64,000 nucleotides of DNA from an uncultured Spirochaetaceae bacterium (GTDB taxonomy: Bacteria; Spirochaetota; Spirochaetia; SZUA-6; RPPD01), in assembly GCA_964634205.1 (NCBI GenBank), contig CAZWKE010000015.1, forward strand, positions 66 through 64,065. Reading direction: 5' to 3'. A program made the position numbers and the translations under genes. Every line of letters starts with the position of its first letter. The stretch's first letter is position 1. The notes under the pieces were generated by a model. That model made no database searches, was not told the DNA's origin, and saw only the letters and a program-made list of their open reading frames with translations. Positions 6,454 to 56,303 of the stretch are shown piece by piece.

Positions 6454-6708
6454 GGCTTCCTCTTTTCACGGAATTGCTTCTGCCGGAATCGGCGGCGGAA
6501 AAAATTCCGAAAGCAAATATTTTGATCCCGAATATTTCGAAATCGTAATAATTGAAAAATAAATAGAGCCCCGCGGGAAGTCAAGTTTTTTTCGCATGAT
6601 CTTTGTATGAAACCGCGAGGTTTCGCGGCACCACATATTTTTTATAACCTGTTCACCCTCCGCCTGAAAGCAGATATAGTATTAAGAAAAGCCCAAGGAG
6701 GAAGTTCT

Positions 6709-7134
6709 ATGCAGCATCACACAACCGCTACTTACGCGGACGGATTGAGTTTTGATGTTGAGCTCGATAATCATCACTTCATGATTGACGGCGACGAAGA
6801 GTTCGGCGGAAAGGACAAGGGGCCCAAACCGAAAAAGCTGTTGCTCGCCGCGTTGGCCGGATGTACGGGGATGGATGTGGTTTCCATTCTGCACAAAATG
6901 AAAATGCCGTTCGACCGGTTCTGGCTTGAGGTGGGGGCGGAGGTTGACGAACAGGCCAAACCCATCGTTTATACCTCGTTTGTGGTCAGTTACTGTTTCT
7001 CCGGCAGCAACCTGGAGCCTGAGAAGATCGACAAGGCCATATCGCTTTCAAAGGAGAAGTACTGCAGTGTTTCGGCAATGTTTCGCGAGTTTGCGGAGGT
7101 GCGCACGGAGGTAAAACTCAATCCGCAGCGATAA
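6709..7134 (+). CDS. OsmC/Ohr-family peroxiredoxin-like protein
   Basis: The ATG at 6709 is preceded by AAGGAGGA. The OsmC core includes ALAGCTGMDV with the conserved Cys. The track ORF 6607-7134 is an upstream in-frame extension. Confidence 0.75.
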   Translation: MQHHTTATYADGLSFDVELDNHHFMIDGDEEFGGKDKGPKPKKLLLAALAGCTGMDVVSILHKMKMPFDRFWLEVGAEVDEQAKPIVYTSFVVSYCFSGSNLEPEKIDKAISLSKEKYCSVSAMFREFAEVRTEVKLNPQR

Positions 7135-8587: not shown

Positions 8588-8780
8588 GATGATACTTCCT
8601 CCTTTTTTTGAACTGGATCCGGGTGCTTTATTTACCTGAAGGTAACAGCGCCTTAGATATAATATAATGACGTGAACCCGGGTTAGCAAGCCCGCAGCGA
8701 TTCCAAATGTAAAGATTTAGAATCGCCGGCAAGTTAATAAGTGAGTAGAACACATACCGTGAAAGGTGTATAATCACCGT

Positions 8781-11072
8781 ATGATAAAAACGCATGTTAT
8801 TGGTTTTCCGCGTATCGGCGGAAAACGCGAGTTAAAATGGGCGCTTGAAGCCTTTTGGGGCGGCGAACTCACCGAAAATGAACTCAACTATCGCGCGGTT
8901 TCCATCATGCGCCACAACTGGGTGTGCCAGAAAACGGCCGGGCTTGATTATATTACCGCCGGTGATTTTTCACTCTACGATCATGTGCTTGATATAACGG
9001 CGGCTATCGGAGCCGTTCCCCCGCGTTTCCGGCAAAACGACGCACCGACCGGCCTGGGTCTTTATTTCAGCATGGCACGCGGTGACGTAAGCCGCGGCAT
9101 ACCGGCTATGGAAATGACAAAATGGTTTGACACCAATTATCATTACCTGGTTCCCGAGTTTTACGCCGGGCAGCGCTTTAAAAAATCTTCCGCCTTTTTT
9201 GAAGATCAGGTAAAAGCGGCGCGGCGTTTCGGTCGTCCCGTAAAACTTTGTCTGTTGGGGCCGGTAAGTTATATCATGCTGGGCAAAGAGATAGACGCGT
9301 CGGTAAATCGCCTGGATTATCTTGACGCGGTTACCGATGTGTATATTGAAATTCTGCAGGCCGCCGCCAAGGACTGCGCACTTGTCCAGTTGGACGAACC
9401 GATACTGAACACGGATATCGATGCACCGGTAAAAGCCGCCCTGTCGCGGGCGTACGGAAAAATCAGTTCCCGGGTGAAGGACGTACCGCTGATGCTGGCC
9501 GCCTATTTCAGTGCCTTGGAGCCGAACCTGGATACTGCCGTTTCCCTGCCCGTCCAGGTGCTGCATGTGGACCTGTGCGCGGGTGAAAGCGATTTTGACC
9601 GGGTTCTGCAGAGCCTGCCGGACCGGATGAGTCTTTCTCTGGGAATTGTCAACGGCAGAAATATCTGGCGTACCGATATGACGCGGGCCCTCGCCATGAT
9701 CGATCGGGCGCGGGCCGTCCTGGGAAGCGGGCGGCTGCTGCTTTCCTCAAGCTGTTCACTGCTGCACGTGCCTGTAGACCTGGACCGGGAATCGGCCCTT
9801 GACCCTGTCGTAAAACAGTGGATGGCTTTTGCCGTGCAGAAATGCCGGGAGCTCAGTCGGCTTAAAAATTACGCGTTGAATGGTTTTCCGGAGGAGGCGC
9901 GCGATCGTGAAGAGAAGCTTTGGGCGGGCAGGGCCGGCCACCCTGCGCTCAATAACCGGTCGGTCAGAAAACGGATGCGGGACATTACCCCGCGTATGTT
10001 ACAGCGTGATCTGCCTTTCACCGAAAGAAATCCGCTGCAAAAGGCGGCCCTGGGATTACCGCCGCTGCCCACCACCACCATCGGATCATTCCCCCAGACG
10101 GGTGAAATCCGCAAAACACGCAGGGCACTCCGTAACGGTGCCATAACGGACGCTGACTATACGGAATTTATGCGTGAGCAGATAAAAATGATTTTGTCCT
10201 TCCAGGAAAACATCGGACTGGATGTGCTGGTGCACGGGGAGGTTGAGCGTAACGACATGGTGGAGTATTTCGGCCAGCAGCTTGACGGCTTCTGTTTTAC
10301 CGGCAACGGCTGGGTGCAGAGTTACGGCAGCCGGTGCGTAAAGCCCCCGGTCATCTACGGCGATGTTTCCCGGCCGCATCCCATGACCGTACCATGGATG
10401 GAGTATGCGCTGAAACAGACCAGAAAACCGGTTAAAGGGATGCTGACCGGACCGGTGACTATTTTGTGTTGGAGTTTTGTGCGCGATGATCTTGCGCCGG
10501 CCGATGTCTGCCGCCAGATTGCCCTGGCTGTCAGGGATGAGGCGGCGGACCTGGAAAAAAGCGGTATTTCCGTCATCCAGATCGACGAGCCGGCCTTCCG
10601 TGAGGGTATGCCCCTGCGTCGTGCGCGGCAGGATGAGTATTTAGGGTGGGCCGTGGAATGCTTTCATCTGGCAAGCTGCGGGGTGAAGGCCGAAACGCAG
10701 GTGCACACCCACATGTGCTATAGTGAGTTTAATTCGATCATCAAGTGGATTGCCGAGATGGACGCTGACGTCATCAGCATAGAGGCCAGCCGCAGCAGGA
10801 TGGAACTGCTTTCGGTATTTGATGATTTTAACTACCCCAATGAGATCGGGCCGGGTGTCTATGATATTCACAGCCCGCGGATCCCCGGGAAAGAGGAACT
10901 GAAGGAACTGATAAAAAAGGCATTGCGGTATATTCCGGCGGCAAAGCTGTGGATCAACCCGGACTGCGGCTTAAAGACCAGGACCTGGCCCCAGGTGGAA
11001 CAGGCCCTGACCAACATGGTGCGGGCGGCGGCAGAGATTCGGGCCGAAATTGACGCGGAGGCGGGTATATGA
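8781..11072 (+). CDS. metE: 5-methyltetrahydropteroyltriglutamate--homocysteine S-methyltransferase (cobalamin-independent methionine synthase)
   Basis: About 764 aa. MIKTHVIGFPRIGGKRELK N-terminus. Duplicated UroD-like halves. C-terminal zinc site motifs (HMCYSEF, DCGLKTR). Confidence 0.9.
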   Translation: MIKTHVIGFPRIGGKRELKWALEAFWGGELTENELNYRAVSIMRHNWVCQKTAGLDYITAGDFSLYDHVLDITAAIGAVPPRFRQNDAPTGLGLYFSMARGDVSRGIPAMEMTKWFDTNYHYLVPEFYAGQRFKKSSAFFEDQVKAARRFGRPVKLCLLGPVSYIMLGKEIDASVNRLDYLDAVTDVYIEILQAAAKDCALVQLDEPILNTDIDAPVKAALSRAYGKISSRVKDVPLMLAAYFSALEPNLDTAVSLPVQVLHVDLCAGESDFDRVLQSLPDRMSLSLGIVNGRNIWRTDMTRALAMIDRARAVLGSGRLLLSSSCSLLHVPVDLDRESALDPVVKQWMAFAVQKCRELSRLKNYALNGFPEEARDREEKLWAGRAGHPALNNRSVRKRMRDITPRMLQRDLPFTERNPLQKAALGLPPLPTTTIGSFPQTGEIRKTRRALRNGAITDADYTEFMREQIKMILSFQENIGLDVLVHGEVERNDMVEYFGQQLDGFCFTGNGWVQSYGSRCVKPPVIYGDVSRPHPMTVPWMEYALKQTRKPVKGMLTGPVTILCWSFVRDDLAPADVCRQIALAVRDEAADLEKSGISVIQIDEPAFREGMPLRRARQDEYLGWAVECFHLASCGVKAETQVHTHMCYSEFNSIIKWIAEMDADVISIEASRSRMELLSVFDDFNYPNEIGPGVYDIHSPRIPGKEELKELIKKALRYIPAAKLWINPDCGLKTRTWPQVEQALTNMVRAAAEIRAEIDAEAGI

Positions 11073-12456
11073 TGTCCGGTGTCGGCGAGATACGGGTCGG
11101 ACCGGGAGTACTCGGGAGTGTGCTGTGGAACTGAAATTTACTATTTTTGGGATCCCCGTACGTATTCATCTTTATTTTTTAATAATTGTCGTTTTCTTAA
11201 GCACCACCAGGATCGCCCATCCCGCGCTGATACTCTCGTGGACCATAGTGGTGGTGGTGTCGGTCATCCTGCATGAACTGGGACACGCCCTTGCCGCCCG
11301 GGCATTCGGTCACAGTCCCAGCATTGAGTTGAAGGGCATCGGAGGGGCGACCTATACGCAGAGGGATGACAGCAGGCTGTTGGAGAGCATTACTATTTCA
11401 CTGGCCGGTCCCCTGACGGGAATTATCATCGGCCTGGCCGCCCTGTGGATGGAATCAACCGTTTCGGTTTCTTCTCCTGTATTTGCCGTGATTATCGGTG
11501 ATATCGTCTGGGTGAACCTCTACTGGAGCCTGGCCAACCTGGCGCCCGTGCTGCCGCTTGACGGCGGGAATATCGTGTTGGCCTTGTTAAACCGGGTGTT
11601 CAAAAACAAGGGCAGGATGATCGCCTCAATAATCTCCTTAGGTCTGACCGTCCCGTTGATTGTCTATTGTCTTTTGCACAATTACCTATTCATCACGCTG
11701 TTGTTGGGCTTCTTTGCGGTGTATAATTTGGGGCAGTTTCGCTATTATCGCAGCAGGGGTGTTGATGCCCACAAACTCCAGGGGCTTCGGGACGGGTATG
11801 CGCTGCTGCAGACCAAAAAATATGATCAGGCCGTCGAGTTGGGGAACAGGCTGCTTGCACAAACGGAAAATCCGCGTGTCAGGGCGGATGTGCTGAATCT
11901 GCTGGGCTGGGCCTATTTTTTAAAGCAGGATTTTGACAGTGCCCTTTCCCTCTATCACGATTACCCCCCGGGGATCAAGCAGGACCAGCGGCTTTTGGCC
12001 TTTCTCTATTTTAATACCCATGATTTTGAGAAGGCGTGCCGGCATTTCCAGAATATTTTTTATGCCGCCAATGACAGGCAGGTCGCCGAATACTATATGC
12101 TTTCCCTGCTTGAGTGTGTGCGCCTGGATGAAGCCTATAAAGCGGCGGAATACGCTCATATGAATATCAGTACGCCGAGCCTGCAAAGCCTGGAAACCCT
12201 GTTGTATAAAAATGAGCAGTTTACCCGTTCTTTCCATATTGATACGTTGATTTATTCCCGTGACCGGTCCGCTGATGCCGCCTACAATGCGGCCTGCGCC
12301 CTGGCCCGCAGCGGGGATAAGAAACGGGCCTGTTTATGGTTAAAAAAGGCCCTGAAAACCGGTTTTAAAAATATCCAACACCTGCGGTCTGATCCGGATC
12401 TGGAGCCCCTGCGCTCCATGTCGTGTTTTGAAAAAATAATACGGGAAGCGGAATGA
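11050..12456 (+). CDS. M50-family (site-2-protease-like) zinc metallopeptidase fused to C-terminal TPR repeats; start uncertain (GTG at ~11125 plausible)
   Basis: HELGHALAA HExxH motif inside a TM helix. FGIPVRIH N-terminal motif typical of M50. The C-terminal ~230 aa has TPR-like helical repeats. The 5' end overlaps the metE stop. Confidence 0.7.
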   Translation: MTRRRVYDVRCRRDTGRTGSTRECAVELKFTIFGIPVRIHLYFLIIVVFLSTTRIAHPALILSWTIVVVVSVILHELGHALAARAFGHSPSIELKGIGGATYTQRDDSRLLESITISLAGPLTGIIIGLAALWMESTVSVSSPVFAVIIGDIVWVNLYWSLANLAPVLPLDGGNIVLALLNRVFKNKGRMIASIISLGLTVPLIVYCLLHNYLFITLLLGFFAVYNLGQFRYYRSRGVDAHKLQGLRDGYALLQTKKYDQAVELGNRLLAQTENPRVRADVLNLLGWAYFLKQDFDSALSLYHDYPPGIKQDQRLLAFLYFNTHDFEKACRHFQNIFYAANDRQVAEYYMLSLLECVRLDEAYKAAEYAHMNISTPSLQSLETLLYKNEQFTRSFHIDTLIYSRDRSADAAYNAACALARSGDKKRACLWLKKALKTGFKNIQHLRSDPDLEPLRSMSCFEKIIREAE

Positions 12457-14000
12457 AAAAACAGGTGGTACGGCAGCATAAGGCTATAAAAAAACTTGAA
12501 TCCCTGACGGGCTATGTACATTATACCGGACTGTTCCTTGCTTTTGCGGCCTTTATTGTAATCGGAATTCTCCTTTTTCTGATGAGTGAACATAACTATT
12601 TATTGTTCCACACCACTGCCGAGCTTTTCAGTATTATTATCGCCGCGGCCATATTCATTCTGGCCTGGAACACCAGAAACTATTCTGAAAACGCCAACCT
12701 GCTCTTTTTGGGAACCATCTACCTGTTTGTGGGGATACTCGACTTTTTTCATACCCTTACCTACAAGGGGATAAACCTGTTTGATACGGGGGTGTTCCAT
12801 GCCACTGAATTTTGGGTGGCCGCGCGCTATATGGAAAGCATCAGCCTGTTTGTTTTTATGCTTTTCTTTAACCGCTTCCGGCACCGGTTCTTTTCCCTGA
12901 TTGTGATTGCCTATACGCTCATCACCACATCATTGGTGCTCTCCATCCTGGTCTGGAAGATATTCCCGGTGTGTTATATCGATCTGCCGGGCAAGGGGCT
13001 GACCCCGTTTAAAATTATCAGTGAATATCTCATCATGGCCGTACTTGCCGTCTCGCTGGTTGTGCTGATCCTGCGCAGAAAGCAGTTCAAGGAACGCCTG
13101 CTGTTTTATTTGGTGTTATGTATCATTACCACCATAATCAGCGAGTTCTTTTTTACCCTTTATACGGACGTCTACGGGATGTGGAACTATCTCGGACATT
13201 TTTTTAAAATCATTTCTTTTTATCTGGTTTACAAGTCAATCATCCAGTTCGGTCTGCGCAATCCGTTTGAGGTTATTTTCAATGAATTAAAACAGAACGA
13301 GATCAAACTGGAACAGGCCAATACCACAAAAAACAAATTTTTTTCGATCATTGCGCATGATCTTAAAGGTCCGTTCAGCGGCATCCTGGGATTTTCCAAA
13401 CTGCTGGCCGAGAAATATGATGATATCAGTGAAGAAAACAGAAAGTATTTTGTGGGACTCATCCACAGCTCCTCGGAACAGGCCTTTAACCTGTTGGAAA
13501 ACCTGCTTCACTGGGCAAGGGTGCAGTCGAATAAACTGCAGGTAAACAAGGTCAAGGTGAATCTCGCTTCCTTGGTAAAGGATATTTTTATTTTATTTGA
13601 AAATTATGCAAAGAAAAAGGACATCGGGCTCGAGGCGGATGTCCCCGACAACATCACAATCCGGGCCGATAAATCAATGATTTTTACGGTGATCTCCAAC
13701 CTGGTAAACAACGGGATCAAATATACAAAACCCGGAGGGAGCATAACCGTTTCCGCGGAAATTTCCGAAAAGACCCTGCGGGTGAAGGTAGCCGATACGG
13801 GGGTGGGCATCGATAAAGAAAATCTTGATAAATTATTCAGAATAGATACCAGTTATAGTAAACCCGGTACGGAGCATGAAAACGGAACGGGATTGGGCCT
13901 GGTGTTATGCAAAGAGTTTGTGGAAATGCATCATGGAAAAATCCGGGCGGAGAGTACCGTCGGCAAGGGTTCCGTGTTCAGTTTCAGTATTCCGGTGTAA
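12453..14000 (+). CDS. Membrane sensor histidine kinase (multi-TM N-terminal sensor, HisKA, HATPase_c)
   Basis: About 7 predicted TM helices. H-box FFSIIAHDLKGPFSG, N-box NLVNNGIKYT, G1 DTGVGID, G2 GTGLGL. ATGA overlap with the upstream gene. Confidence 0.85.
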   Translation: MKKQVVRQHKAIKKLESLTGYVHYTGLFLAFAAFIVIGILLFLMSEHNYLLFHTTAELFSIIIAAAIFILAWNTRNYSENANLLFLGTIYLFVGILDFFHTLTYKGINLFDTGVFHATEFWVAARYMESISLFVFMLFFNRFRHRFFSLIVIAYTLITTSLVLSILVWKIFPVCYIDLPGKGLTPFKIISEYLIMAVLAVSLVVLILRRKQFKERLLFYLVLCIITTIISEFFFTLYTDVYGMWNYLGHFFKIISFYLVYKSIIQFGLRNPFEVIFNELKQNEIKLEQANTTKNKFFSIIAHDLKGPFSGILGFSKLLAEKYDDISEENRKYFVGLIHSSSEQAFNLLENLLHWARVQSNKLQVNKVKVNLASLVKDIFILFENYAKKKDIGLEADVPDNITIRADKSMIFTVISNLVNNGIKYTKPGGSITVSAEISEKTLRVKVADTGVGIDKENLDKLFRIDTSYSKPGTEHENGTGLGLVLCKEFVEMHHGKIRAESTVGKGSVFSFSIPV

Positions 14001-14019: not shown

Positions 14020-14478
14020 TTATTGCAGCACCCTGATATGATATCCTTTCAACAGCCAGATCTTTTTCCCGTTATAGGTGGTGGTGGGAGATATAATCTT
14101 TGCCACTAAAATGACCGTGGAGTTTATTCCTATCTGCCGGGTACCGAACAACCGCTTGTACTCCGGTCCGCTGAACCGGATGAACGCCTGATAACTTTTT
14201 ACCTGCTCGGGACTTATCCATTCCCCTCCGGTCAAGGTCAGCTGCACGGTATAGGTGTTCGTGTTTTTGTCAAGAATGGCAATGTCGGAAATCGTCCCGC
14301 TCAGAATGATATACTTGTCGGTGGGAAGCGTGCCGCCGCGGCCCTGCTCCATAAGCTGGTTTAATGTTTTAAGGGTGATGGAAAAATCCACCTTTGCATC
14401 AAAAGCAGACCGGTCCTGGGGGAAAGCGGTCAGGCTTAATGCAAAAAGCAGAAGAGGTATAGTAATATATTTTTTCAT
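14020..14478 (-). CDS. Hypothetical secreted protein
   Basis: 152 aa. Signal peptide MKKYITIPLLLFALSLTAFPQ. No recognisable catalytic motifs. Confidence 0.5.
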   Translation of the reverse strand: MKKYITIPLLLFALSLTAFPQDRSAFDAKVDFSITLKTLNQLMEQGRGGTLPTDKYIILSGTISDIAILDKNTNTYTVQLTLTGGEWISPEQVKSYQAFIRFSGPEYKRLFGTRQIGINSTVILVAKIISPTTTYNGKKIWLLKGYHIRVLQ

Positions 14479-14561
14479 ACGGTTCCACTCCTTCCATAAA
14501 AATACTAATTGCTTTAAGGCGTTGGGTCAATAAAATTATTTTTGCCGCCTTGAGAGCTGTG

Positions 14562-15302
14562 TCAGGGAACAGATTTACTATTGCCGGTCCCGGACGTTAG
14601 AATCCCGTCTATCTGACCCAGAATTGACTCCAGGCGTGCGGCTTCTGCGTCGGACAGACCGGCGCGGCCCATGATGTCTTGAAAAAACACACCGATGTCA
14701 TGATACGGTGCCTGCTTGAAAATACCCATTTTTTTTAAAACCGCGGTGGTGGTCTTTGCCAGGGAATCTACACGTGATTTGGGGACAGGAGAAAAGGATA
14801 CGTCTTGGGCAGGTAATTCATGACGGTATAAAATATAGGTTATAATCTGTACGGCATGCGAAAGGTTTAAGGAGGGGAATAAAGGCGAAGACGGGATGTT
14901 GACGGCCACATGACAGTGGGAAAGCTCCGCATCGGAAAGTCCGTGTTTTTCAGTTCCGAACACCAGGGAAACCCTGCCGCCCGGAACGGCTGCAACACGT
15001 TCGGCAAGCTGCTCAGGAGTAAGGGTAACATACTTGCGGAACTTTCCCTGACGCCGGGTGATTCCCGCGATCAAGACCGAGTCTTGGAGCGCCTGCTTCA
15101 GGTTTGGTACCACCGTGCAGGCTTTTACAATATCCGCGGCATGGACCGCCGTAATTGCGGCGCGTTTAAAGTCAGGCCGCTTTTGTGCGATAATCTTGAG
15201 AGAGCTGATCCCCATTGTTTTCATGGCTCGAGCGGCCAGGCCGATATTCTTCTCTTCGGAAGGGTTTACCAATACTATTGTAATATTTTCCCGAATGCCC
15301 AT
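14562..15302 (-). CDS. SpoU/TrmH-family RNA 2'-O-methyltransferase (TrmJ-like)
   Basis: 246 aa. N-terminal ITIVLVNPSEEKNIGLAARAMKTMG, characteristic of TrmJ/LasT. Confidence 0.75.
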   Translation of the reverse strand: MGIRENITIVLVNPSEEKNIGLAARAMKTMGISSLKIIAQKRPDFKRAAITAVHAADIVKACTVVPNLKQALQDSVLIAGITRRQGKFRKYVTLTPEQLAERVAAVPGGRVSLVFGTEKHGLSDAELSHCHVAVNIPSSPLFPSLNLSHAVQIITYILYRHELPAQDVSFSPVPKSRVDSLAKTTTAVLKKMGIFKQAPYHDIGVFFQDIMGRAGLSDAEAARLESILGQIDGILTSGTGNSKSVP

Positions 15303-15438
15303 ACCATAAACTCCTCTATGGAAAAAACTGTAACGGGTATACCGGCTTTAGTCAAACCGCGATTTTACATTCGTTCCATATGAAAATCACCGTAGTCTAA
15401 CAGAAGGCCGATAACAGCAAATTTTTTTTTATTATTGT

Positions 15439-15466
15439 TTGACAAATATGTGAATGCTTATATAAT
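15439..15466 (+). promoter_or_regulatory. Near-consensus sigma-70 promoter (TTGACA - 16 nt - TATAAT) upstream of the STAS/YbjN/PspA genes
   Basis: The sequence tgTTGACAaatatgtgaatgcttaTATAATtaaag lies in an AT-rich 230-bp intergenic region, about 65 nt upstream of the 15533 start. Confidence 0.5.
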
Positions 15467-15532
15467 TAAAGAAGAAATCTCAAGCTATTTTCCCTCTTAA
15501 AAGTAGAGTGAGAATTATGTAAAAGGATTGAT

Positions 15533-16081
15533 ATGAACAATGAGATAATACCAGGATTTGACGATGAAAAAGATGAAAGCCTAAAAATACGTCTTCAGAA
15601 TGTAGATAATGTCGAGAACTGTCTGGTTCTGTATCTCAGTGGGTATATAGATACGTATAATTCGAACTTATTCCAGAAAAGAGTATCAAAAGCCATCGAT
15701 AAAGGTTTCATCAGACTGATATTTCATTGCGGGGGCCTTAATTATGTATCCAGTACGGGTATCGGGTCGTTTACCGCGTTTTTAAAGGCCGTAAAACCGC
15801 GCAGCGGTGATTTGGTTTTACTTGAAATCCAGCCGAAAGTATACGAGGTTTTTCAGCTGCTTGGATTTTCTCAGTTTTTTAATATCAAGGAAACGCTGGA
15901 GGACGCGGTTTCATTCTTTACACAGGCAAGCACAAAAGCCCCCAACGCCATTTTTCCGAAAATATTCAAATGCCCTATCTGTTCCAAGAAATTAAAGGCG
16001 ACCAGGGCCGGACGCTTCCGCTGTTCGGAGTGTAAGACAATCCTTGTCATTGATGACTCGGGTCAAGTATTTCTTGGGTAA
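15533..16081 (+). CDS. STAS-domain (anti-sigma-antagonist-like) protein with a C-terminal C4 zinc ribbon
   Basis: STAS-like core LVLYLSGYIDTYNSNLFQKRV...YVSSTGIGSFTAF...GDLVLLEIQPKVYEVFQLLGF. C-terminal CPICSKK...CSEC zinc ribbon. Confidence 0.6.
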   Translation: MNNEIIPGFDDEKDESLKIRLQNVDNVENCLVLYLSGYIDTYNSNLFQKRVSKAIDKGFIRLIFHCGGLNYVSSTGIGSFTAFLKAVKPRSGDLVLLEIQPKVYEVFQLLGFSQFFNIKETLEDAVSFFTQASTKAPNAIFPKIFKCPICSKKLKATRAGRFRCSECKTILVIDDSGQVFLG

Positions 16082-16118
16082 TCCGTTTTGATGTAACAAT
16101 TAAAAAATTAAGGAGGAG

Positions 16119-16511
16119 ATGATGATAAGCAAAGACAAGCTTGAAGGGTATATGATAAAACTTTCCCTCAATTTTGAAGAAATATCGGAAAACACCTGGC
16201 TGATCAACGATCTCGACAAGGGCCTGGAAAACGTTGTGGTCCTTGCCAATGACTCCGTGGTAGTAATAAGGGTCAAGGTAATGGAGGCCCCCGAGGTAAA
16301 CAGGGAGGCCTTTTTCGGTAAGTTGTTGAAATTAAACGCAACGGATATGGTTCACGGGGCCTATGCGCTGGAGGAGGACAATGTTATCATAATTGATTCA
16401 CTTGTCTCCGAAACGCTTGATTTGGAAGAGTTCCAGGCGTCGATTGACGCAATCGGGTTTGCCCTGTCTCAGCACTATGCCGTGCTTTCAAAATATAGAA
16501 AAAAGGACTAA
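16119..16511 (+). CDS. YbjN-like (T3SS-chaperone-like fold) hypothetical protein
   Basis: 130-aa acidic protein. Its alternating hydrophobic pattern resembles the YbjN/putative sensory-transduction-regulator family. Sits directly upstream of pspA. Confidence 0.45.
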   Translation: MMISKDKLEGYMIKLSLNFEEISENTWLINDLDKGLENVVVLANDSVVVIRVKVMEAPEVNREAFFGKLLKLNATDMVHGAYALEEDNVIIIDSLVSETLDLEEFQASIDAIGFALSQHYAVLSKYRKKD

Positions 16512-16524
16512 GGAGGCGATTAAT

Positions 16525-17235
16525 ATGGGTATTTTTAAACGCATGGGCGATGTTTTACGCGCCAATATAAATGATATGATAAGCAAGTCCGAAAATCCTG
16601 AAAAAATGTTAAACCAGATGGTTATGGACATGCAGGAGCATCTGATCGATTCAAAAAAGAGTGTGGCGTCCGCCATCGCGGATGAGAAGCGCCTGGAACG
16701 GCAGATGAAAGAGCAGATTGCCCAGGCCCAGGATTGGGAGAAAAAGGCCATGCTGGCGGTAAACGCGGGTAAGGATGATCTGGCAAAAGAGGCCCTCCTG
16801 CGGAAACAGGAATACGCGGGCCTGGCCACACAGTATAAAGAGCAGTGGCAGGCGCAGCATGTGTCCGTGCAAAAATTAAAAGAATCTTTACGCCTCCTGC
16901 AAAATAAAATTGAAGAGGCGCAGAGAAAGAAGAACCTGCTTATTGCCCGGGCCAAGCGGGCCGAAGCGCAGAAGCAGATACAGAAGACCATGGGTGGACT
17001 GTCCGATACTTCAGCCTTTGAGGTGTTCGACAGAATGGAGGCCAAGGTGGATCAAATCGAGGCTGAGGCCGATGCCATGCAGGAGCTGGAAGACTTCAGT
17101 GCCGATTCCGATCTTGATAAGCAGTTTAAACAGCTTGAGTCCGGAGATGCAAACGCGGATCTGATGTTGGAAGAATTGAAGCAGAAAATGGGACAAATCG
17201 AAGACAAGAGCGGAGATAAAGGCGCAGAAGCATAG
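16525..17235 (+). CDS. pspA: PspA/IM30-family envelope-stress protein
   Basis: AGGAGG RBS 9 nt upstream of the ATG. MGIFKRMGDVLRANINDMISKSENPEKMLNQ is the canonical PspA N-terminus. Coiled coil throughout. Confidence 0.85.
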   Translation: MGIFKRMGDVLRANINDMISKSENPEKMLNQMVMDMQEHLIDSKKSVASAIADEKRLERQMKEQIAQAQDWEKKAMLAVNAGKDDLAKEALLRKQEYAGLATQYKEQWQAQHVSVQKLKESLRLLQNKIEEAQRKKNLLIARAKRAEAQKQIQKTMGGLSDTSAFEVFDRMEAKVDQIEAEADAMQELEDFSADSDLDKQFKQLESGDANADLMLEELKQKMGQIEDKSGDKGAEA

Positions 17236-17338
17236 TTTTTTAATCAACCTTGTTTCACACAATCAAATTTTATTCGAGACGCTGAAACTACACAATAAAA
17301 AACAAAAACGTTATCAGTATGTTTATACCGCGAAACCC

Positions 17339-17866
17339 GTGGCGGAAAGTGAGACAGACGCCTATGTTGTGCCTGTGGAGTCGGTCCCCCTGTTGTTGAG
17401 CAGAAAGGGACTGCCGGATACCTGGCTGCCGGTCATAGCTTACGGAAAACCCGCGTCGCTTGCCAAAGCCTTTCTGGCGGGTTGTCAAGATTACCTGAAG
17501 GAGCCCTTTAACCTTATTGAACTGGAGTTCAGGTTAAACAAAATATTTACCACTGAGGATAACAGCTATCCATTGTACGGCCGGAAACTGGCACTGCAGG
17601 CCACGGAGTGTTCCACGGAAACGGACCATGTGCAGTTATCGTTGCAGGAGGGTGTTTTACTGCGGCTGCTCTTAAAGCAGCGCGGCAGAATCGTCCCCCG
17701 TGATGTATTATTCTACGCGCTGTGGGGAAAACCGCCGCGCAGGCACAGCCGCGTTGTGGACGTACATATTTCCTCACTGCGTAGAAAGCTTTCCCGGCTT
17801 TTCCCTGAGATGAAAAACGAACGCTTTATTTACAGTGCAAAGGGAAAAGGCTATATTCTGTTGTAG
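17339..17866 (+). CDS. OmpR/PhoB-type winged-helix regulator retaining only the C-terminal half (alpha4-beta5-alpha5) of a receiver domain
   Basis: GTG start. DYLKEPFNLIELEFRLNKI matches the receiver alpha4-beta5-alpha5 region. The Trans_reg_C wHTH follows (VVDVHISSLRRKL...GKGYIL). There is no room upstream for the phospho-acceptor half. Confidence 0.55.
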   Translation: MAESETDAYVVPVESVPLLLSRKGLPDTWLPVIAYGKPASLAKAFLAGCQDYLKEPFNLIELEFRLNKIFTTEDNSYPLYGRKLALQATECSTETDHVQLSLQEGVLLRLLLKQRGRIVPRDVLFYALWGKPPRRHSRVVDVHISSLRRKLSRLFPEMKNERFIYSAKGKGYILL

Positions 17867-25664: not shown

Positions 25665-27197
25665 ATGAAAAAAAGGTTTTGCTTCGCGGGTGCTTTATTA
25701 TTGACCGGACTGTTTCTGTTGTCCGCTTGCGGGTCCGGGGTTATAAAATCCGACCTGGGGTCGCTCTCCTGTCTGCCCGACAACTATACATCGTTTATCT
25801 ATATCAAGAACTTTCCGCATATAAAGGATGTTTTTGAGAAGTCGGAGTTCGCCGCTAAACTGAAAGATAACTATGTCTATCGGGATTTAAAGTACAAATA
25901 CTCACAGAGTATGGACCTGTTTTTTGTCAAGCTGGACTTTGATCCCGAAGCGCTGTTGGAACGGGTGAACAAAGATCTGCTGATCGGCTTTACCCCCGGC
26001 AGCTTTTTTGTGGCTGCCTCCCTGGATTATCAGTCACAGCTTGTGTATGCGCTTTTCAACCTGCTGCCCGATACCTACATCCAAAAAAGCAGGATTATGG
26101 GGCAGGAGATCAGCAGCTTTGCCCGGAACGGAAGGCAGATCTATTTCAGCTTCCAGAACAATTATCTGGTGGTAGCCGGAGACCGCAATACCATGTCCGC
26201 CCTGCTGGATTCCGACAGAAACAAAGACGTAGAGGGCAATGCATTGATAAACTCCTGTACGGATGAAGATGTTTATTTTCGCACCTCAATGCCCAAGGAT
26301 TACAACCAGTTCGATCTGCTGCCGCAGCTGGGGAAAATCTCCGTCAGGCTTAACCTGGCCACCTTTCATGCCCGGCTTGAGGCGGAACCGAAAAGCCACA
26401 GCTCATTTACCAAACCGGAAGAGGATTACCAGTATTTCCGCTTTTTAAAGTACCTTCCCCCGGATTTTACCCTGTGTTATTTTAACCGGGAATACGAAAC
26501 GGCCGCGGTCCTGCGCCAAATCTTTTCCAACTATGCCGAAGACCCCACGTATGCCTACCGGGCCGAGGAAAACATAAAAGAACTCTCCGTATTCGACAAC
26601 TTCAGCGATGGAGCCGTGTTTGCCTTTAAGACCCTGGGCTACAACCGCGGAGGTTCGGATGTGGAGCCCGGATTTGCTTTTGCCCTGCAGTTAAAAAAGA
26701 AGGTCCCGTCCTCCGGCCTGCCGTCGATATACGCCTCGGTTTTCCGTGTATTCAATTTCCTGTTCGGGTTCAGCGGTTGGGACAAGCAGGCGGGAAAAAA
26801 CTACACGGTTTATACCTGCAGAGACAATGATTTCCATATCATTGTTGCGGATCGCTTTTTCATTCTCTGCAGCAGCAAGGACATAACCGGGGACATAACC
26901 CAAAGGATCGAATCCGCCCAGGCATCGTTGTACGATACCCTGTTCGGCCGGTTCAAATCAGTAAAACAGGACAACCTGGTCTATTACATGGGAATTAATA
27001 TGAACAGCCTGGTGTCCGAGGTGGAGCCGTTTTTCTCCGATTATATCCGCGGGCGCCTGGGGATGAACAGGGGAGAGTATAATCACAGTTTCGGGGAGTT
27101 CATCAGTTTTTTGAAAGGTCGCCGACCGCTTTACATAACACTATCCAAAACCACAGACAGGGGAATGTATACGGGTGAAGTTACGTTTGTCAAATAA
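25665..27197 (+). CDS. Hypothetical lipoprotein, first gene of the alpha-2-macroglobulin cluster (possibly YfaA/DUF2138-like)
   Basis: Signal plus lipobox MKKRFCFAGALLLTGLFLLSACGSG. 510 aa. Overlaps the next gene. Confidence 0.45.
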   Translation: MKKRFCFAGALLLTGLFLLSACGSGVIKSDLGSLSCLPDNYTSFIYIKNFPHIKDVFEKSEFAAKLKDNYVYRDLKYKYSQSMDLFFVKLDFDPEALLERVNKDLLIGFTPGSFFVAASLDYQSQLVYALFNLLPDTYIQKSRIMGQEISSFARNGRQIYFSFQNNYLVVAGDRNTMSALLDSDRNKDVEGNALINSCTDEDVYFRTSMPKDYNQFDLLPQLGKISVRLNLATFHARLEAEPKSHSSFTKPEEDYQYFRFLKYLPPDFTLCYFNREYETAAVLRQIFSNYAEDPTYAYRAEENIKELSVFDNFSDGAVFAFKTLGYNRGGSDVEPGFAFALQLKKKVPSSGLPSIYASVFRVFNFLFGFSGWDKQAGKNYTVYTCRDNDFHIIVADRFFILCSSKDITGDITQRIESAQASLYDTLFGRFKSVKQDNLVYYMGINMNSLVSEVEPFFSDYIRGRLGMNRGEYNHSFGEFISFLKGRRPLYITLSKTTDRGMYTGEVTFVK

Positions 27198-28224
27198 ACG
27201 GGGAGTGTTCATATCGCTTCTCATCCTGTTTTGTCTATGTATTGTCGCTGCCGCCGGGCTGTTTTTCTCCGCCCTTGCGGACAATGCATTGATTATAAAT
27301 ACAAACGAGCGGTCGCTTCCCGCGGACCGCGGTTCGACCTGTTTTTATGCCATCAGCTATGCCAATCCCCTGCGTGCATTGTTTTTCCCCTTTAACGGAA
27401 ATTATTCACTTGAGTTCGAACAGGGGGGCGGATTGGTAACGACCGTTAAAAAGCAAGGCGGCTTTTTTATCCAAAGTACGGGCCAAAGCGGTACCGTGGT
27501 ATTCAGCGTAAATGTCGCCGGATTCAGACAGGGTTTCAACCTGCGCATCGATACGGATACCGCGGATACGGACGGCGACGGTTTTCCGGACGCGGTGGAG
27601 CTGGATTCGCCGGCGGACCGGGAAAGTTTTCGCCGCTGGTTTGTCAGTATTGCCGAAAGTCAGTTCTACGCGCCCTCGTATTCCTGGTATGACATACACC
27701 GGGACTGCGCCGGGTTGGTGGTATTTTCCTTTAAAGAGGCGCTGAAAAAGCACGGGACGGACTGGTTGAAAAATTTTCCCTACCTGGTAAAACAGGATAT
27801 CCCGGATGTGCGGAAATATCACTACCCGCGGGTGCCGCTTTTGGGAGACCGGATCTTTCGTACCGCCGGGGGAGGGTTCGCGGCGGGGGATGTAAAAAAC
27901 GGCGGTTTTGCCCCGGTTGCCGACGTAAATACCCTGATAAACCACAACCTGACGTTTATCGGCAAAGACCCCGGAGACTTTGCGGCGGGTGATATTTTGT
28001 TTTTCCTGCACACCGACAACCCGGACATGCCCTTTCATTCCATGATTTATACGGGAAGGGACGGGTGGCTGGTGTACCATACCGGCCCGTTGGACGACAA
28101 GCCGGAGGGAGAGGTGAGAAAAGTACGCCTGACGGATTTGTTGCTTCATCCGGACAGGAGTTGGGCGCCCGTGGCGGACAATCCCTGTTTTTTGGGTGCG
28201 TTTCGCTGGAATATTTTAATGTAG
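27175..28224 (+). CDS. A2M-associated secreted protein, putatively DUF1175 (YfaT/MagE-like), with an Asp-rich TSP3-like calcium-binding repeat
   Basis: GTG start overlapping the upstream gene. N-terminal TM/signal. DTDTADTDGDGFPDAVELD repeat. Position immediately 5' of the A2M gene. Confidence 0.45.
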   Translation: MKLRLSNKRGVFISLLILFCLCIVAAAGLFFSALADNALIINTNERSLPADRGSTCFYAISYANPLRALFFPFNGNYSLEFEQGGGLVTTVKKQGGFFIQSTGQSGTVVFSVNVAGFRQGFNLRIDTDTADTDGDGFPDAVELDSPADRESFRRWFVSIAESQFYAPSYSWYDIHRDCAGLVVFSFKEALKKHGTDWLKNFPYLVKQDIPDVRKYHYPRVPLLGDRIFRTAGGGFAAGDVKNGGFAPVADVNTLINHNLTFIGKDPGDFAAGDILFFLHTDNPDMPFHSMIYTGRDGWLVYHTGPLDDKPEGEVRKVRLTDLLLHPDRSWAPVADNPCFLGAFRWNILM

Positions 28225-28246
28225 CGATCATTAAGGAGGAGAAAGT

Positions 28247-31200
28247 ATGTTTACACAGAAGAAAGCCGGATTTTTGCTTTGGGTACTGTGTGTGGGCTGT
28301 ATCTTGTTTTTTAGCGGAGGCCCGCTGTTCGGCGAGCGTCCCTTTTACCTTTCCACGGACAGAAGTTTTACTCCGGGTGAAGGCATAAAAATCAGGGTTG
28401 AGTCCGCCCGCATTTCCACCCTGAAGATCAGGGTCTATAAAATAAAGGACCCCACCCAGTACTTTCTGACCCAGGATAATATCCACCGCCCCAAGGTCCG
28501 GGGGAGGTCAATGCGCTACTTTGCCCCGGAGGTTTTCAGCGGATTTGAGGACCACCTGCGCGTCTCCCTGCGGCATTGGGCCAGGCGGACCATCCCGGCG
28601 CTTAATCGCGGCAAGATCATGGAAACATACCCTGAGTTTGCGCGTAAATCGCGCGAGGGGCATTATAATCCGGAAAAGACTGTTGATTATATCAATGACG
28701 AAAACTTCAGCCTGGCACGGGAAGAGGAGTGTGTGCTGGAGGAGCGCGGCCATGACCTGAATGTCAATTATGTGTTTCTGAACAGTCTCTTACCGGGTAC
28801 CTATCTGATCGAGGGGATAAACGGGAGAAATGTGGCGTACACGGTCCTTAATATCGCGGAGTTCGGTTTTATCGTGAAAAAGGCCGGGGAGGACTGCCTT
28901 GTCTACACCGTAAACAACAAAACCGCGGAACCGTTGGCGGGGGTGGAGCTGACCGTATACAACCGTTTTAACCGCAAGGTGGGACAGCTGCGTTCGGACA
29001 ATAACGGCCTGGCCCGGGCGCGTTTGGCCGAAAATGATATATTTATCGTCGGCCGCAGCCCGCGGGGTGAGTACGCGTTTTATGATCCCAATTATTTCCC
29101 CTCCACGCTGCGCGACAATAATGTGTATATGTACACCGAACGGCCGGTGTATCGCGGCGGTGATACGGTATATTTCAAGGGAATTTACAGAAATTATAAA
29201 CAGGGCGTGTACAGCGCAACCGGCGCCGGAGAGATCGGGATGACCGTTATCGACGGCCGGGGGAACCGGGTACAGACGTTCACCGTGAACTCGGACAACC
29301 TGGGTATTTTTTCCGGAGAGTTCGCCCTGCCCAAGGACGCGGTTTCCGGGCGTTATACCCTTCTGGCGCGCATCGACGGAAAAGAGTACGAGGCTGAGTT
29401 CAAGGTGGAGTATTATAAAAAGCCGGAGTTCAAGGTAGAGGTCACCACACCGGAATCCGCCTATATCGGCGGGGCCGAACTGACCGCGAACGTCAGCGGG
29501 CTGTATTATTTCGGGGAGCCCCTGGCCGGGGCAACCGTGCATTACTCGGTCTACCGAACACGCTTTGCGGATACCCAATGGATGAACGACCAGGCCGGCG
29601 GGTTCTATGTCAGTGAGCAGGAGTATGTATACTCCCGACCGGAGTTGATCGAAAGCCGGGATGCCAGGCTTGACGGGAAAGGAAAGCTTTCGCTTCAGAT
29701 TAAAACACGCCATGAAAATGATCCCTTTACCTACCGGATTGAGGCTGCGGTTGTTTCCGACACCGGAACCAGGGTAACCGGCAGCACCCTGGTCAAGGTA
29801 TACCCTGCCGCCGTGCGCCTGGGCATCTCAACCGATAAGTTTGTGTACCTGGTGCGTGAAAAAGTGAACATAGAGGTAAGGCTGGCGGACATAAAAGGCA
29901 TGCCGCTGGCGGGCAAGGTAAAGGTGACGGCCACCTCAGGAAACCAGGTGATAGGGGACGGCTCGGTCAACACCTCCGCCAAGGGCGGGGGAGTGTTCCG
30001 GTTTTCCGCACGCAGCACGGGATTTGTGAAGGTCCTGGCCCAGGCACAGGACAAGGACGGCAATACGGTAAAAAGTGAAAAATACCTCTGGATTGGAGAA
30101 GAAGGCGCGAGTTACCAGTACAGCGGCGGGCTTATCAAGCTGGTCCTTGATAAATCCTCATATAAAACGGGCGAGCGGGCAAAGCTGCTTGTTATTTCCC
30201 CGGTGCCGGAGGTCAAATTCCTGCTGACGGTGGAGGGTGATGACATCTACAGCCATGAGGTGAAAAAACTCAGCGGCAACAGCGCTTTAATCGAGATTCC
30301 GTTATATGAAAAGTATATTCCGAATGTGTTTGTCGACGTCAGTTTTATTTTTAACAATCGCTTTTACAACAACAGCATAAAGATCAGTATTCCGCCTGAA
30401 CAACGGTTTTTAAATATCGATATTAAGCCGGAGAAAAAGGTGTATGAACCCGGGCAGACCGGCAGTATGCTGATAACGGTTACGGACAACAAGAACCGCC
30501 CGGTGGCGGGGGCGGACCTTTCCCTGTCCGTGGTGGATGAAGCCATCTACGGCATCTCCAACGAAATCGCGGTTGATATCCGGAAGTTTTTCTATCCCTT
30601 CCGGCGCAACAATGTCATGACCTGGTCTTCCATCGGGTTCAGGTTTTACGGATATGCCATGGACGTGTACAGCGAGCTTGCCCAGCGGTTTTACCGGGAC
30701 CCGACGGGGCTGGCCGCCTTCAAAGGAGGAGAGGCGGAACGCAAGGATTTTAAGGATACAATACTGTGGATCCCCTCCCTGAAAACAGACAGCCGGGGGC
30801 AGGCACGTGCCGAGGTCAAGTTTCCGGACAACATCACCCAATGGCGGGCCACGGTAGTGGGAATTACCGGGGACACCCTCGTGGGCAGGGCAACCGGGAG
30901 TGTCATCACCAAACTTGATTTTTTCACCGATATTTCCCTGCCTTCGTACCTGGATGAGAAGGACCGGTTCTCCATTTATAATAGCGTATACAACTATACG
31001 GATAAAAGCCTCAAGACAACCCTGACCATGAAAGCGGACAAGGCGGTCATAGCCGAACCGCTGCAGACCGTTACCGTGGAACCGCACAGCAGCACGCTGG
31101 TGCAATGGGACCTCACCGCCGCGGGACTGGGTGAGGCAAGCTTTACGCTGCAGGCCAATGCCGGCCGTTACAAGGACACCATCACCAAAAAAGTGACCAT

Positions 31201-32809: not shown

Positions 32810-32821
32810 AAGGGGGCGGAT

Positions 32822-33496
32822 ATGAAGAAGATATGTTTGGGGTTGTTTTTACTGCTGTTTGCCGGGACCGTGACGTTGTGTGCCGATTATCTCCGTATTC
32901 TTTCACCGCGCGGCGGTTGGACCGATCAGCGCGTAATTACCATTTCCGGAGAGACGGACGCCCATGTGGACGCGGTCCGGGTGGTGTACAACAGTATTCC
33001 CCTGCGGCTGCCCGTACGAAGCGGGAGGTTCAGCCGCAATTTCGTCACCGCCCCGGGGCTGAACTCCATTTACGCGGAGGCCGAGTTCAAGGGGAAGGTA
33101 CTCTCGGATAATGTGTCCTTTTACGCGGAGGTACCCTCGAAGGCCATGAAGATCGTGATTATGTGGGACACGGACAAGACCGATGTGGATCTGCATGTGA
33201 AGGAGCCCACCGGTGAAGAGTGCTATTACGCCAATCCCCATACCAAGATCGGCGGGGCCCTGGATGTCGATATTACCACGGGGTACGGCCCCGAGGTGTA
33301 TACCCTGGCTTCGGCCACCAAGGGTACGTACAAGATCAGCGTTTACTACTACTCGGACCGCGGCAATCCCCAGACCCAGGTCAAGGTCTATGTGGTGCTG
33401 TATGAAGGCACTCCGAACGAGCGTATTCAGGAGTTCGAGACCATGCTGACCAAGACCGGGGTGGAAGTATATATCGATGCGGTCACGCTTGAATAA
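32822..33496 (+). CDS. Secreted protein, putatively DUF2135 (YfaP/MagA-like) A2M accessory protein
   Basis: Signal peptide. Conserved-looking block IVIMWDTDKTDVDLHVKEPTGEECYYANP...GGALDVDITTGYGPEVY. Confidence 0.45.
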   Translation: MKKICLGLFLLLFAGTVTLCADYLRILSPRGGWTDQRVITISGETDAHVDAVRVVYNSIPLRLPVRSGRFSRNFVTAPGLNSIYAEAEFKGKVLSDNVSFYAEVPSKAMKIVIMWDTDKTDVDLHVKEPTGEECYYANPHTKIGGALDVDITTGYGPEVYTLASATKGTYKISVYYYSDRGNPQTQVKVYVVLYEGTPNERIQEFETMLTKTGVEVYIDAVTLE

Positions 33497-34238
33497 GAAA
33501 GCACGCACGGCCTTACCCCTGCTCTTGCTGGGCCTGGTGCTTGCGGTGTCGCTTACGGGAGGTTCGTTTTCACGGGGGCGGTTTTATCTTCATGGAGACG
33601 GGTTTAGCGCGGATGAGGCCGGCCTGGTTATGGACACCCTGGAAAATGCGGAGCGGTTGTTAAGCGGTATCTATAATTATATTCCTGCTGAAAATCTGGA
33701 CATTATTGTGTTGTCCGGGGTATGGGAAATGAAAACTTCGTTTGGTGTAGGCCCCTGGGTGGGGGCGTATTATACCGGCTTTAAAACCTACCTGCAGCCC
33801 ATAGCGACCCTGAAAAAGCGCGAAGTACTTGCCAGGGTCCTGTTTATTGAGTACGCCCATTACTATCTGGACTCTTACACAAATCGGACCTGTCCGGCCT
33901 GGTTTAATGAGCTGTGCTCGTATTACCTTTTTCGCCTGTATACCGGTGCCCCGCCGGTTCCGGCCGCGCCGGCGGCCGGAGTTTCCTTCAGGCGCTATGC
34001 TGATTTTATCGATCTCTCCGCGAACATGAGGGATTATGACCGGCTGGAGTCATTTTACTATTACGCGGTGCGCTTTGTGCTGTTCTTACAGGAACGGCAC
34101 AGGCTGAACGCCTGCCTGGACCTGGTAAAAGCCATGCACCGCGGCATCTCGTTCAAGGATGCGGTAACACAGGCCGCGGGAAAATCCCCGGCCCGGTTGT
34201 TTGAAGAGGAGTTTTTGGCATGGCCCGCGGCAAAATAA
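33477..34238 (+). CDS. Hypothetical secreted protein in the A2M cluster
   Basis: 253 aa. Signal peptide MRSRLNKKARTALPLLLLGLVLAVS. Overlaps both neighbours. Confidence 0.45.
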   Translation: MRSRLNKKARTALPLLLLGLVLAVSLTGGSFSRGRFYLHGDGFSADEAGLVMDTLENAERLLSGIYNYIPAENLDIIVLSGVWEMKTSFGVGPWVGAYYTGFKTYLQPIATLKKREVLARVLFIEYAHYYLDSYTNRTCPAWFNELCSYYLFRLYTGAPPVPAAPAAGVSFRRYADFIDLSANMRDYDRLESFYYYAVRFVLFLQERHRLNACLDLVKAMHRGISFKDAVTQAAGKSPARLFEEEFLAWPAAK

Positions 34239-38454: not shown

Positions 38455-38466
38455 GGCTGTTCCTCC

Positions 38467-56197: not shown

Positions 56198-56303
56198 GGT
56201 ATGACCTCCCAACACAGCATAGAGGGAATCACTGAAAGAATCAAGCCAATTTTGGGGTTGCCCAGAAACGTTTTACATTATAGAATGTACCGTATAACAT
56301 AAA

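Follow-up and report, generated by a model that had tools for sequence, protein, structure and literature searches.

The window analyzed here, 64,000 nucleotides of contig CAZWKE010000015.1 from an uncultured Spirochaetaceae bacterium, contains four genes on the forward strand that encode, in order, a STAS-domain protein with a C-terminal zinc ribbon (STAS-ZnR), a small acidic CesT-like protein, a PspA/IM30 family protein, and an OmpR-type regulator. We read these genes as the local copy of a Spirochaetia-wide Psp-type operon whose small proteins form a partner-switching relay around PspA, and we give this reading a probability of about 45%. Directly established are the gene content, order, and spacing, the promoter, the folds, a conserved serine, and the conservation of the cluster across orders. 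A sequence-only reading of the same DNA had described a three-gene PspA operon; the three co-directional, tightly spaced open reading frames (ORFs) are as it said, but it overlooked the fourth gene of the conserved cluster (positions 17339 to 17866).

Is this gene order particular to the window? We examined the cluster from two sides, with 70 non-redundant genome loci on the STAS-ZnR side, each with at least 2.3 kb of downstream sequence, and an independent sample on the CesT side in which 49 loci had enough upstream sequence and 67 enough downstream sequence. Past the STAS-ZnR gene, 41 of the 70 loci continue with the CesT-like gene, PspA, and the regulator, 12 with PspA and the regulator, 8 with the CesT-like gene and PspA, and 8 with the regulator only, and a single locus has none of the three. 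PspA is directly downstream at 61/70 loci (49 via the CesT-like gene and 12 without it), and a regulator gene comes after PspA in 53 loci and straight after STAS-ZnR in 8 more. Viewed from the CesT side, STAS-ZnR is directly upstream in 46 of 49 loci and PspA directly downstream in 66 of 67. The loci represent the orders Winmispirales, Treponematales, and Spirochaetales, and at least three orders of Spirochaetia keep the arrangement STAS-ZnR, CesT-like gene (where present), PspA, regulator. The gene order that the sequence-only reading had singled out for checking in relatives is therefore kept, at 61/70 loci on one side and 46/49 on the other. A scan with the STAS-ZnR alignment, taking one genome per species, recovered at least 557 relatives, and the best 80 of these all belong to the Spirochaetota. 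A large protein collection held more than 2,500 STAS-ZnR relatives; the best 120 were 78 to 90% identical, and all of those with a named source were labeled spirochaete.

The first gene (15533 to 16081, + strand) encodes STAS-ZnR, a protein of 182 amino acids (aa) that begins with a conserved PGFDDEKD peptide (aa 1 to 16), followed by the STAS domain (aa 17 to 130), a variable linker (aa 131 to 141), and a C4 ribbon (aa 142 to 182). Its STAS identity, proposed earlier from the letters of the sequence, was upheld by hidden Markov models and by the fold. The Pfam STAS model PF01740 scored 77.8 bits against a cut-off of 22.6, and the NCBIfam anti-sigma factor antagonist model TIGR00377 scored 63.6 bits against 53.45. 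In the AlphaFold model of the protein (mean predicted local distance difference test score [pLDDT], 93.8), a linker of low confidence (residues 131 to 140) connects two domains. The best Foldseek structures were SpoIIAA (1tid/1til; template modeling [TM] score of 0.89 to 0.90, root mean square deviation of 1.3 Å) and RsbV (6m36), with TM scores of the STAS fold to SpoIIAA and RsbV of 0.89 to 0.91. In HMMER alignments, the window motif vSStGiG falls on SpoIIAA mDSSGLG and RsbV mDSTGLG, which places Ser74 on the phosphorylated serine. Ser74 is at least 90% conserved family-wide and invariant in spirochaetes. The STAS domain is thus of the partner-switching (SpoIIAA/RsbV) type, and in fold and sequence it fits the link to partner switching that had been suggested for it.

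The zinc-ribbon module of STAS-ZnR (15956 to 16078, + strand; isoelectric point [pI], ∼9.6) carries Cys147, Cys150, Cys164, and Cys167 in a CPxC-x13-CxxC arrangement. These four cysteines are invariant in 28 STAS-ZnR family members, down to 36% identity, and the AlphaFold model folds the module into four short strands with pLDDT above 90. We predict from the cysteines and the model that the C terminus is a C4 zinc ribbon, as first proposed, though Pfam zinc-ribbon models score under cut-off (20.7 versus 25.4). Assignment to a specific zinc-ribbon subfamily or solved homologue failed; the structural matches were generic and nonsignificant (TFIIE-alpha, L37ae, and Rpb12; E ≥ 0.03). Among 71 spirochaete STAS-ZnR sequences, 93 of the 182 positions are invariant; the invariant stretches take in the whole Ser74 loop and helix, residues 99 to 116, and most of the zinc ribbon, and only the linker varies. 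At two loci, L094 (3448 to 3989) and L154 (1 to 449), STAS-ZnR appears as two matches that overlap or adjoin each other, perhaps because of a frameshift or of an error in assembly.

The second gene (16122 to 16511, + strand; an alternative ATG at 16119 would give 130 aa) encodes an acidic protein of 129 aa (pI 4.6) with the fold shared by type III secretion system (T3SS) chaperones and YbjN, and an identical 129-aa protein is on record (P0278). It had been called YbjN-like, a name that stands at the level of the fold but not of the Pfam family, which is CesT_Tir_1 (PF22550; 85.7 bits, cut-off 27); the YbjN family PF10722 scored 17.6 bits, under its cut-off of 22. Homologues with 57 to 77% identity include some with a precomputed PF10722 match and one named "YbjN domain-containing" by NCBI. 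Foldseek with the predicted model (pLDDT 88) matched T3SS class I chaperones (SicP, SycT, ExsC, and CesT) on one side and the YbjN family (YbjN 6vu7, with a TM score of 0.67 to 0.70, AmyR, and 2plg) on the other. Sequestering regulators are among the closest structures: ExsC, CsrA-bound CesT, AmyR, YbjN, and PA14_16140.

The third gene (16525 to 17235, + strand) encodes the 236-aa PspA, and its earlier identification as PspA was borne out: PF04012 (PspA_IM30) matched over the full length, with 194.3 bits against a cut-off of 33.9 and coverage of residues 2 to 221. The proteobacterial equivalog model TIGR02977 gave 164.7 bits, under its cut-off of 242.95. Judged by these sequence models, the window protein is a member of the PspA family and not an E. 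coli-type orthologue. At eight loci (L013, L017, L018, L022, L031, L039, L061, and L069), the C terminus of PspA carries a 30- to 60-aa low-complexity insert followed by a second copy of an LxxLKxKL motif; no correlation was found between this second copy in spirochaete PspA and the presence of the CesT-like gene. We also looked for any PspA feature that tracks the CesT-like gene and found no discriminating columns. The C-terminal tail motif occurs in both groups, and presumably in E. coli PspA as well.

The fourth gene (17339 to 17866, + strand) starts with GTG 103 nucleotides (nt) past the pspA stop codon and encodes a 175-aa winged-helix regulator of the OmpR/PhoB family with a degenerate, N-terminally shortened receiver. 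Trans_reg_C (PF00486) matched it with 59.5 bits (cut-off 26.2), and NCBIfam response-regulator models align to it only from about profile position 85 on. The receiver model PF00072 matched neither the window regulator nor its orthologues at four loci (Winmispira thermophila in two strains, L092, L093, and L094), for which Trans_reg_C is alone in the precomputed Pfam results. The N-terminal half of the receiver is missing in the window protein. When the regulator is aligned with 15 orthologues, no phospho-acceptor Asp is found at its expected position ("D-h-h-h-h-P"), and "DYLKEPW" replaces "DYLxKPF," with loss of the conserved Lys. Of the three relatives nearest to the window, two share its short form of the regulator (175 to 181 aa); most other orthologues have ∼200 to 230 aa, and some of the orthologous genes overlap the end of pspA. 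By its sequence, the protein is predicted to be an atypical, phosphorylation-independent regulator whose receiver cannot be phosphorylated. The loss of both the acceptor Asp and the conserved Lys implies that its activity is set in another way than by phosphorylation. For the transcriptional output of the operon, this regulator is the obvious candidate.

Upstream of the four genes lies a sigma-70-type promoter (15439 to 15466, + strand) with TTGACA at 15439 to 15444, a 16-nt spacer, and TATAAT at 15461 to 15466, preceded immediately by a T-rich tract. The promoter was described correctly at the outset: it matches the consensus at 12/12 positions and is the sole match of at least 11/12 on both strands of the window, where base composition predicts ∼0.016 perfect matches. 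This feature is shared by relatives. In 76 of 79 loci, an exact TTGACA is found no more than 200 nt 5′ of STAS-ZnR (chance, ∼4%); 79 of 82 upstream regions have a combined −35/−10 score of 10/12 or better, and the −35 consensus across loci extends to tTTGACAa. Within the window, STAS-ZnR and the CesT-like gene are separated by 37 to 40 nt and the CesT-like gene and pspA by 13 nt, with an AGGAGG site in each gap. Tight spacing or overlap of the operon genes is found across loci; in Winmispira thermophila, for example, 12 nt separate STAS from PspA, whose end is overlapped by the regulator gene. We also considered a regulatory RNA in the 5′ untranslated region and set it aside, as the region returned zero Rfam matches. 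Fifteen Treponematales-type loci (e.g., L057, L066, and L079) carry TTGACAnnnnnTTGAC and then two −10-like hexamers, from about −85 to −40 relative to the STAS start codon, forming two −35/−10 pairs with an 11-bp offset. This arrangement could be two promoter-like pairs or a direct repeat and a candidate OmpR-type binding site.

How might these four proteins work together? In the relay that we propose, the strong sigma-70 promoter would drive all four genes, and PspA would be the membrane-binding effector. The CesT-like protein would serve as a dedicated PspA chaperone or sequestering partner, and STAS-ZnR would act as a serine-phosphorylatable switch whose kinase and phosphatase are encoded elsewhere. 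A sequestration relay would couple PspA, or the state of the membrane, to the pseudo-receiver OmpR-type protein, which would be the DNA-binding output. Such a relay would fill the place taken in other Psp systems by PspF/PspBC, LiaFSR, or ClgR/PspMN. We infer every physical contact in this scheme, as well as Ser74 phosphorylation and the direction in which control runs. We favor a partner-switching relay because three of the four proteins belong to sequestering classes and because PspA of E. coli is itself a partner switcher, with PspF and PspB/C as its alternative partners.

The proposed relay has partial counterparts among known systems. As in the PspF-PspABC system of E. coli, PspA would be the effector; unlike that system, the window lacks PspF, PspC, and a sigma-54 promoter, PspB is not among the tested ORFs, and the promoter is of the consensus sigma-70 type. 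Our Pfam scans covered 49 window ORFs; 47 had at least 110 aa, and all long nonoverlapping ORFs were included. No PspC and no Sigma54_activat/PspF was found among the 49, so the earlier claim that PspC and PspF are absent holds for these ORFs. For PspB the same claim has less reach: none was seen among the scanned ORFs, but ORFs the size of PspB (∼75 aa) lie below the 110-aa size cut that nearly all of these passed. STAS-ZnR resembles SpoIIAA-SpoIIAB and RsbV-RsbW in its STAS fold, in Ser74 falling on the phosphorylated serine, and in the invariance of the surrounding loop and helix. It differs from these systems in that the window has no adjacent kinase/anti-sigma factor, phosphatase, or sigma factor, and the protein itself differs from SpoIIAA and RsbV in its extra C-terminal C4 ribbon, its N-terminal PGFDDEKD, and its operon with PspA.

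Partner switching with a nonsigma output has precedents in the ExsA-ExsD-ExsC-ExsE cascade of Pseudomonas and in CesT-CsrA, both of which are sequestration relays that use proteins of the T3SS-chaperone fold. The window operon is similar in encoding a small acidic chaperone-fold protein together with a transcription factor and small binding proteins, and ExsC (3kxy) and CesT-CsrA (5z38) are among the structural matches of its CesT-like protein. Unlike these relays, it is accompanied by no type III secretion genes, and its regulator is OmpR type and not AraC type. Lineage-specific Psp regulators have been described in Bacillus (LiaIH-LiaFSR) and Mycobacterium (ClgR-PspA-PspM-PspN) (PMC11237479, PMC9239133). 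What they share with the window operon is a PspA homologue whose gene is accompanied by those of a dedicated DNA-binding regulator and of small partners specific to the lineage. The window regulator, unlike theirs, is OmpR type with a dead receiver and has no cognate kinase in the conserved cluster, and the STAS-ZnR and CesT-like partners are predicted to be cytoplasmic soluble proteins, not membrane proteins.

The pairing of the CesT-like protein with PspA is already described. The CesT/Tir-PspA dyad, along with many other PspA partners, was reported by Ravi et al. (2024, mSystems, PMC11237479) as a unit found in many operon contexts, including band-7/flotillin, AAA+ ATPases, YqiJ/YuaF, polyamine-metabolism genes, and YjfL. 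The window agrees with that dyad in having a CesT_Tir_1 gene directly 5′ of pspA, on the same strand and with the 13-nt gap, and we found the pair in 66/67 loci; it differs in that the dyad sits between the STAS-ZnR gene and the pseudo-receiver OmpR-type regulator. STAS is unmentioned in the text and supplement of PMC11237479, and Popp et al. (2022, PMC9239133) noted regulatory genes near spirochaete pspA but not STAS. In these two large comparative studies of Psp systems and in further literature searches, we found no report of a STAS-PspA, STAS-zinc-ribbon, or spirochaete Psp link, and none of STAS-ZnR as a partner in a PspA operon. The suggestion that a STAS protein provides an undescribed way of controlling PspA is accordingly supported in part: the STAS-PspA link appears to be unreported, but the CesT-PspA dyad is known, and the regulator had been missed.

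Several observations weigh against the relay. No HATPase_c_2/RsbW-type kinase and no SpoIIE/PP2C phosphatase is present among the 49 scanned ORFs of the 64-kb window, as the sequence-only reading had said of the kinase, and none of the 25 commonest Pfam families among 111 flanking ORFs of 14 relatives is a kinase or phosphatase. A promoter with a 12/12 match requires no activator. Two metagenome loci, L093 and L120, carry CesT-PspA-regulator without STAS-ZnR and have a receiver (REC)-sigma-54 activator in its place. Conversely, at the 8/70 loci where STAS-ZnR is followed directly by the regulator, no PspA lies between them. The surrounding genes (sigma-54 activator, up152, and SpoU; see below) also keep their order, which makes the gene-order signal partly one of general synteny. 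STAS-ZnR has a median identity of 80% to its window counterpart, far above the medians of its proposed partners: 63% (PspA), 53% (CesT-like protein), and 35% (regulator). The neighboring SpoU has a median of 42%. Lastly, STAS-ZnR shows no relaxation in the eight PspA-less loci, where pairwise identity is 95% for the ribbon and 88% for the STAS domain. We had considered that constraint on the ribbon might relax once the adjacent PspA is lost; none was seen, which lends no support to the idea that the zinc ribbon exists only to bind PspA.

In the main alternative, which we regard as quite possible, the core role of STAS-ZnR is independent of PspA. STAS-ZnR would act, for example, as an antagonist of an RsbW-like anti-sigma factor/kinase or as a binder of another conserved machine, and the mobile CesT/Tir-PspA dyad would gain high constitutive expression by residing in its operon. 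STAS-ZnR is ∼80% identical across orders, with half of its sequence fixed as described above, well above PspA, the CesT-like protein, and the regulator, and its constraint is undiminished without adjacent PspA, so its role may exceed control of PspA. Direct STAS-ZnR-to-regulator loci and the occurrence of the dyad in many other operon contexts (PMC11237479) point the same way. Because STAS-ZnR outconserves PspA and persists where the adjacent PspA is lost, "controls PspA" may describe a part of its function or none of it.

The absence of PspA around more distant relatives also speaks for this alternative. Among 1.84 billion cluster representatives, 182 clusters matched STAS-ZnR at E ≤ 1e−30, and most of the best 150 clusters share the ∼180-aa STAS-ZnR architecture. 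A PspA linkage of relatives with 35 to 60% identity was looked for and not found, with PspA in 0/5 contexts; in these gene neighborhoods, the PspA link appears specific to the ∼80%-identical spirochaete clade of STAS-ZnR. At L086 (2252 to 5552) and L087 (1626 to 5199), three tandem 183-aa STAS-ZnR paralogues with 37% identity to the window protein come right after a 465- to 556-aa HATPase_c_2 gene. This placement of the distant triplet ties the STAS-ZnR family to RsbW-type kinases, a point in favor of the relay.

A role independent of PspA has to be reconciled with a linkage that is present in 87 to 94% of loci, spans at least three orders, and comes with near-zero gaps. The absence of PspA at some loci also looks secondary, because L034, one of the eight regulator-only loci, retains a 56-aa PspA remnant (6672 to 6839) between STAS-ZnR and the regulator. 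Genomes without PspA at the locus may, moreover, have it elsewhere. For the constraint on STAS-ZnR at PspA-less loci there are two explanations: it comes from something other than the operon partners, or these genomes encode PspA at another site.

A stronger version of the partner-switching relay would make STAS-ZnR itself the founder of a new kind of Psp regulation. Here, an abundant, serine-phosphorylated switch would swap between PspA (or the CesT-like protein) and the regulator by way of its ribbon and its STAS face. We consider this version rather unlikely. If it were true, stress sensed by PspA would reach transcription without sigma-54, PspB/C, or a two-component kinase, and the near-invariance of STAS-ZnR would reflect several simultaneous binding surfaces.

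Could the genes be neighbors by inherited synteny, merely co-transcribed and with no functional connection? Two opposite-strand genes lie upstream of the operon. One encodes a SpoU-family RNA methyltransferase (14562 to 15302, − strand; Pfam SpoU_methylase, 88.9 bits), which is upstream at 43 of 82 genome loci and is probably a syntenic neighbor outside the system. The other encodes up152 (14020 to 14478, − strand), a 152-aa protein with a signal-peptide-like N terminus and no Pfam or NCBIfam match; among 82 genome loci, 48 have it upstream, as do most metagenome loci that extend far enough, and it is a conserved divergent neighbor of the operon class-wide. Together with the sigma-54 activator found farther upstream in relatives, these genes are syntenic across the class, and because the flanking genes are syntenic too, slow genome rearrangement explains part of the conservation. 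On the downstream side, synteny is lost, with PCMT and RmuC following the cluster in the three closest relatives only. Moreover, the four co-directional genes stay together, tightly spaced or overlapping, and all four products belong to classes that bind proteins or DNA. Taken together, these data make an absence of any functional connection improbable.

The sigma-54 activator raises the question of a PspF-like system, in which this syntenic REC-AAA+ protein would regulate the PspA genes and STAS-ZnR would be incidental. A census of flanking ORFs placed the activator (REC plus AAA+, ∼375 to 450 aa) 5′ of the operon and on its strand in 10 of 14 relatives, and it is also present in Winmispira thermophila and in most metagenome loci that reach far enough upstream. 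In most related loci it is ∼3 kb 5′ of the STAS gene (L013, 3335 to 4465; L043, 3273 to 4466), and at L093 (2753 to 3958) and L120 (3746 to 4918) it lies directly 5′ of CesT-PspA-regulator. The relatives' activator is absent from the window, both by Pfam on the 49 ORFs and by tblastn with a relative's activator. No −24/−12 promoter with two or fewer mismatches was found between 4562 and 21552, a stricter + strand scan gave nothing in 14500 to 17400, and a scan of the genome loci (a set that does not contain metagenome loci such as L093 and L120) gave one match of at least 10/11, at L074 and far past the operon. With the activator missing from the window, no −24/−12 element near its operon, a conserved promoter of the sigma-70 type, and a minus-strand gene usually lying between activator and operon in relatives, we reject sigma-54/PspF control for the window and regard a PspF-like system as very improbable.

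The place that the activator holds in relatives is occupied in the window by a MASE3-HisKA-HATPase_c histidine kinase gene (12453 to 14000, + strand), which is shared only with the closest relatives, L006 and L008, and in part with L007. The kinase gene overlaps the end of an M50-peptidase/TPR gene (11050 to 12456), and that gene in turn overlaps the end of metE (8766 to 11072). Three other regions of the window are of separate interest. A 749-aa ORF (53966 to 56215, − strand) joins an MFS_2 sugar-transporter domain to C-terminal Reg_prop ("two-component regulator propeller") repeats, an unusual fusion, and adjoins a GH31 glycosidase gene. A bacterial alpha-2-macroglobulin (A2M) cluster (27175 to 35185, + strand) comprises DUF1175, a 1,520-aa A2M-family protein, DUF2135, a family-less ORF, and a transpeptidase-domain protein. 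Two class II aminoacyl-tRNA-synthetase-like genes adjoin each other at 37066 to 39702 (− strand), and the weak tRNA-synt_2 match of the second (38467 to 39702) suggests that it is a divergent paralogue.

Membrane repair by PspA/IM30/ESCRT-III proteins extends to all domains of life, but how these proteins are controlled is understood for just a few lineages. In spirochaetes, a group with an unusual envelope and with major pathogens among its members, Psp biology has hardly been studied. The operon described here gives them a defined, widely conserved set of four small soluble proteins, and our analysis identifies among these an exceptionally conserved STAS-zinc-ribbon protein. If the partner-switching relay is correct, it would mean a new kind of regulation for Psp systems and, for partner switching, a new nonsigma output. 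If the role of STAS-ZnR proves instead to be independent of PspA, the protein would still be a conserved, probably abundant regulator of spirochaetes.

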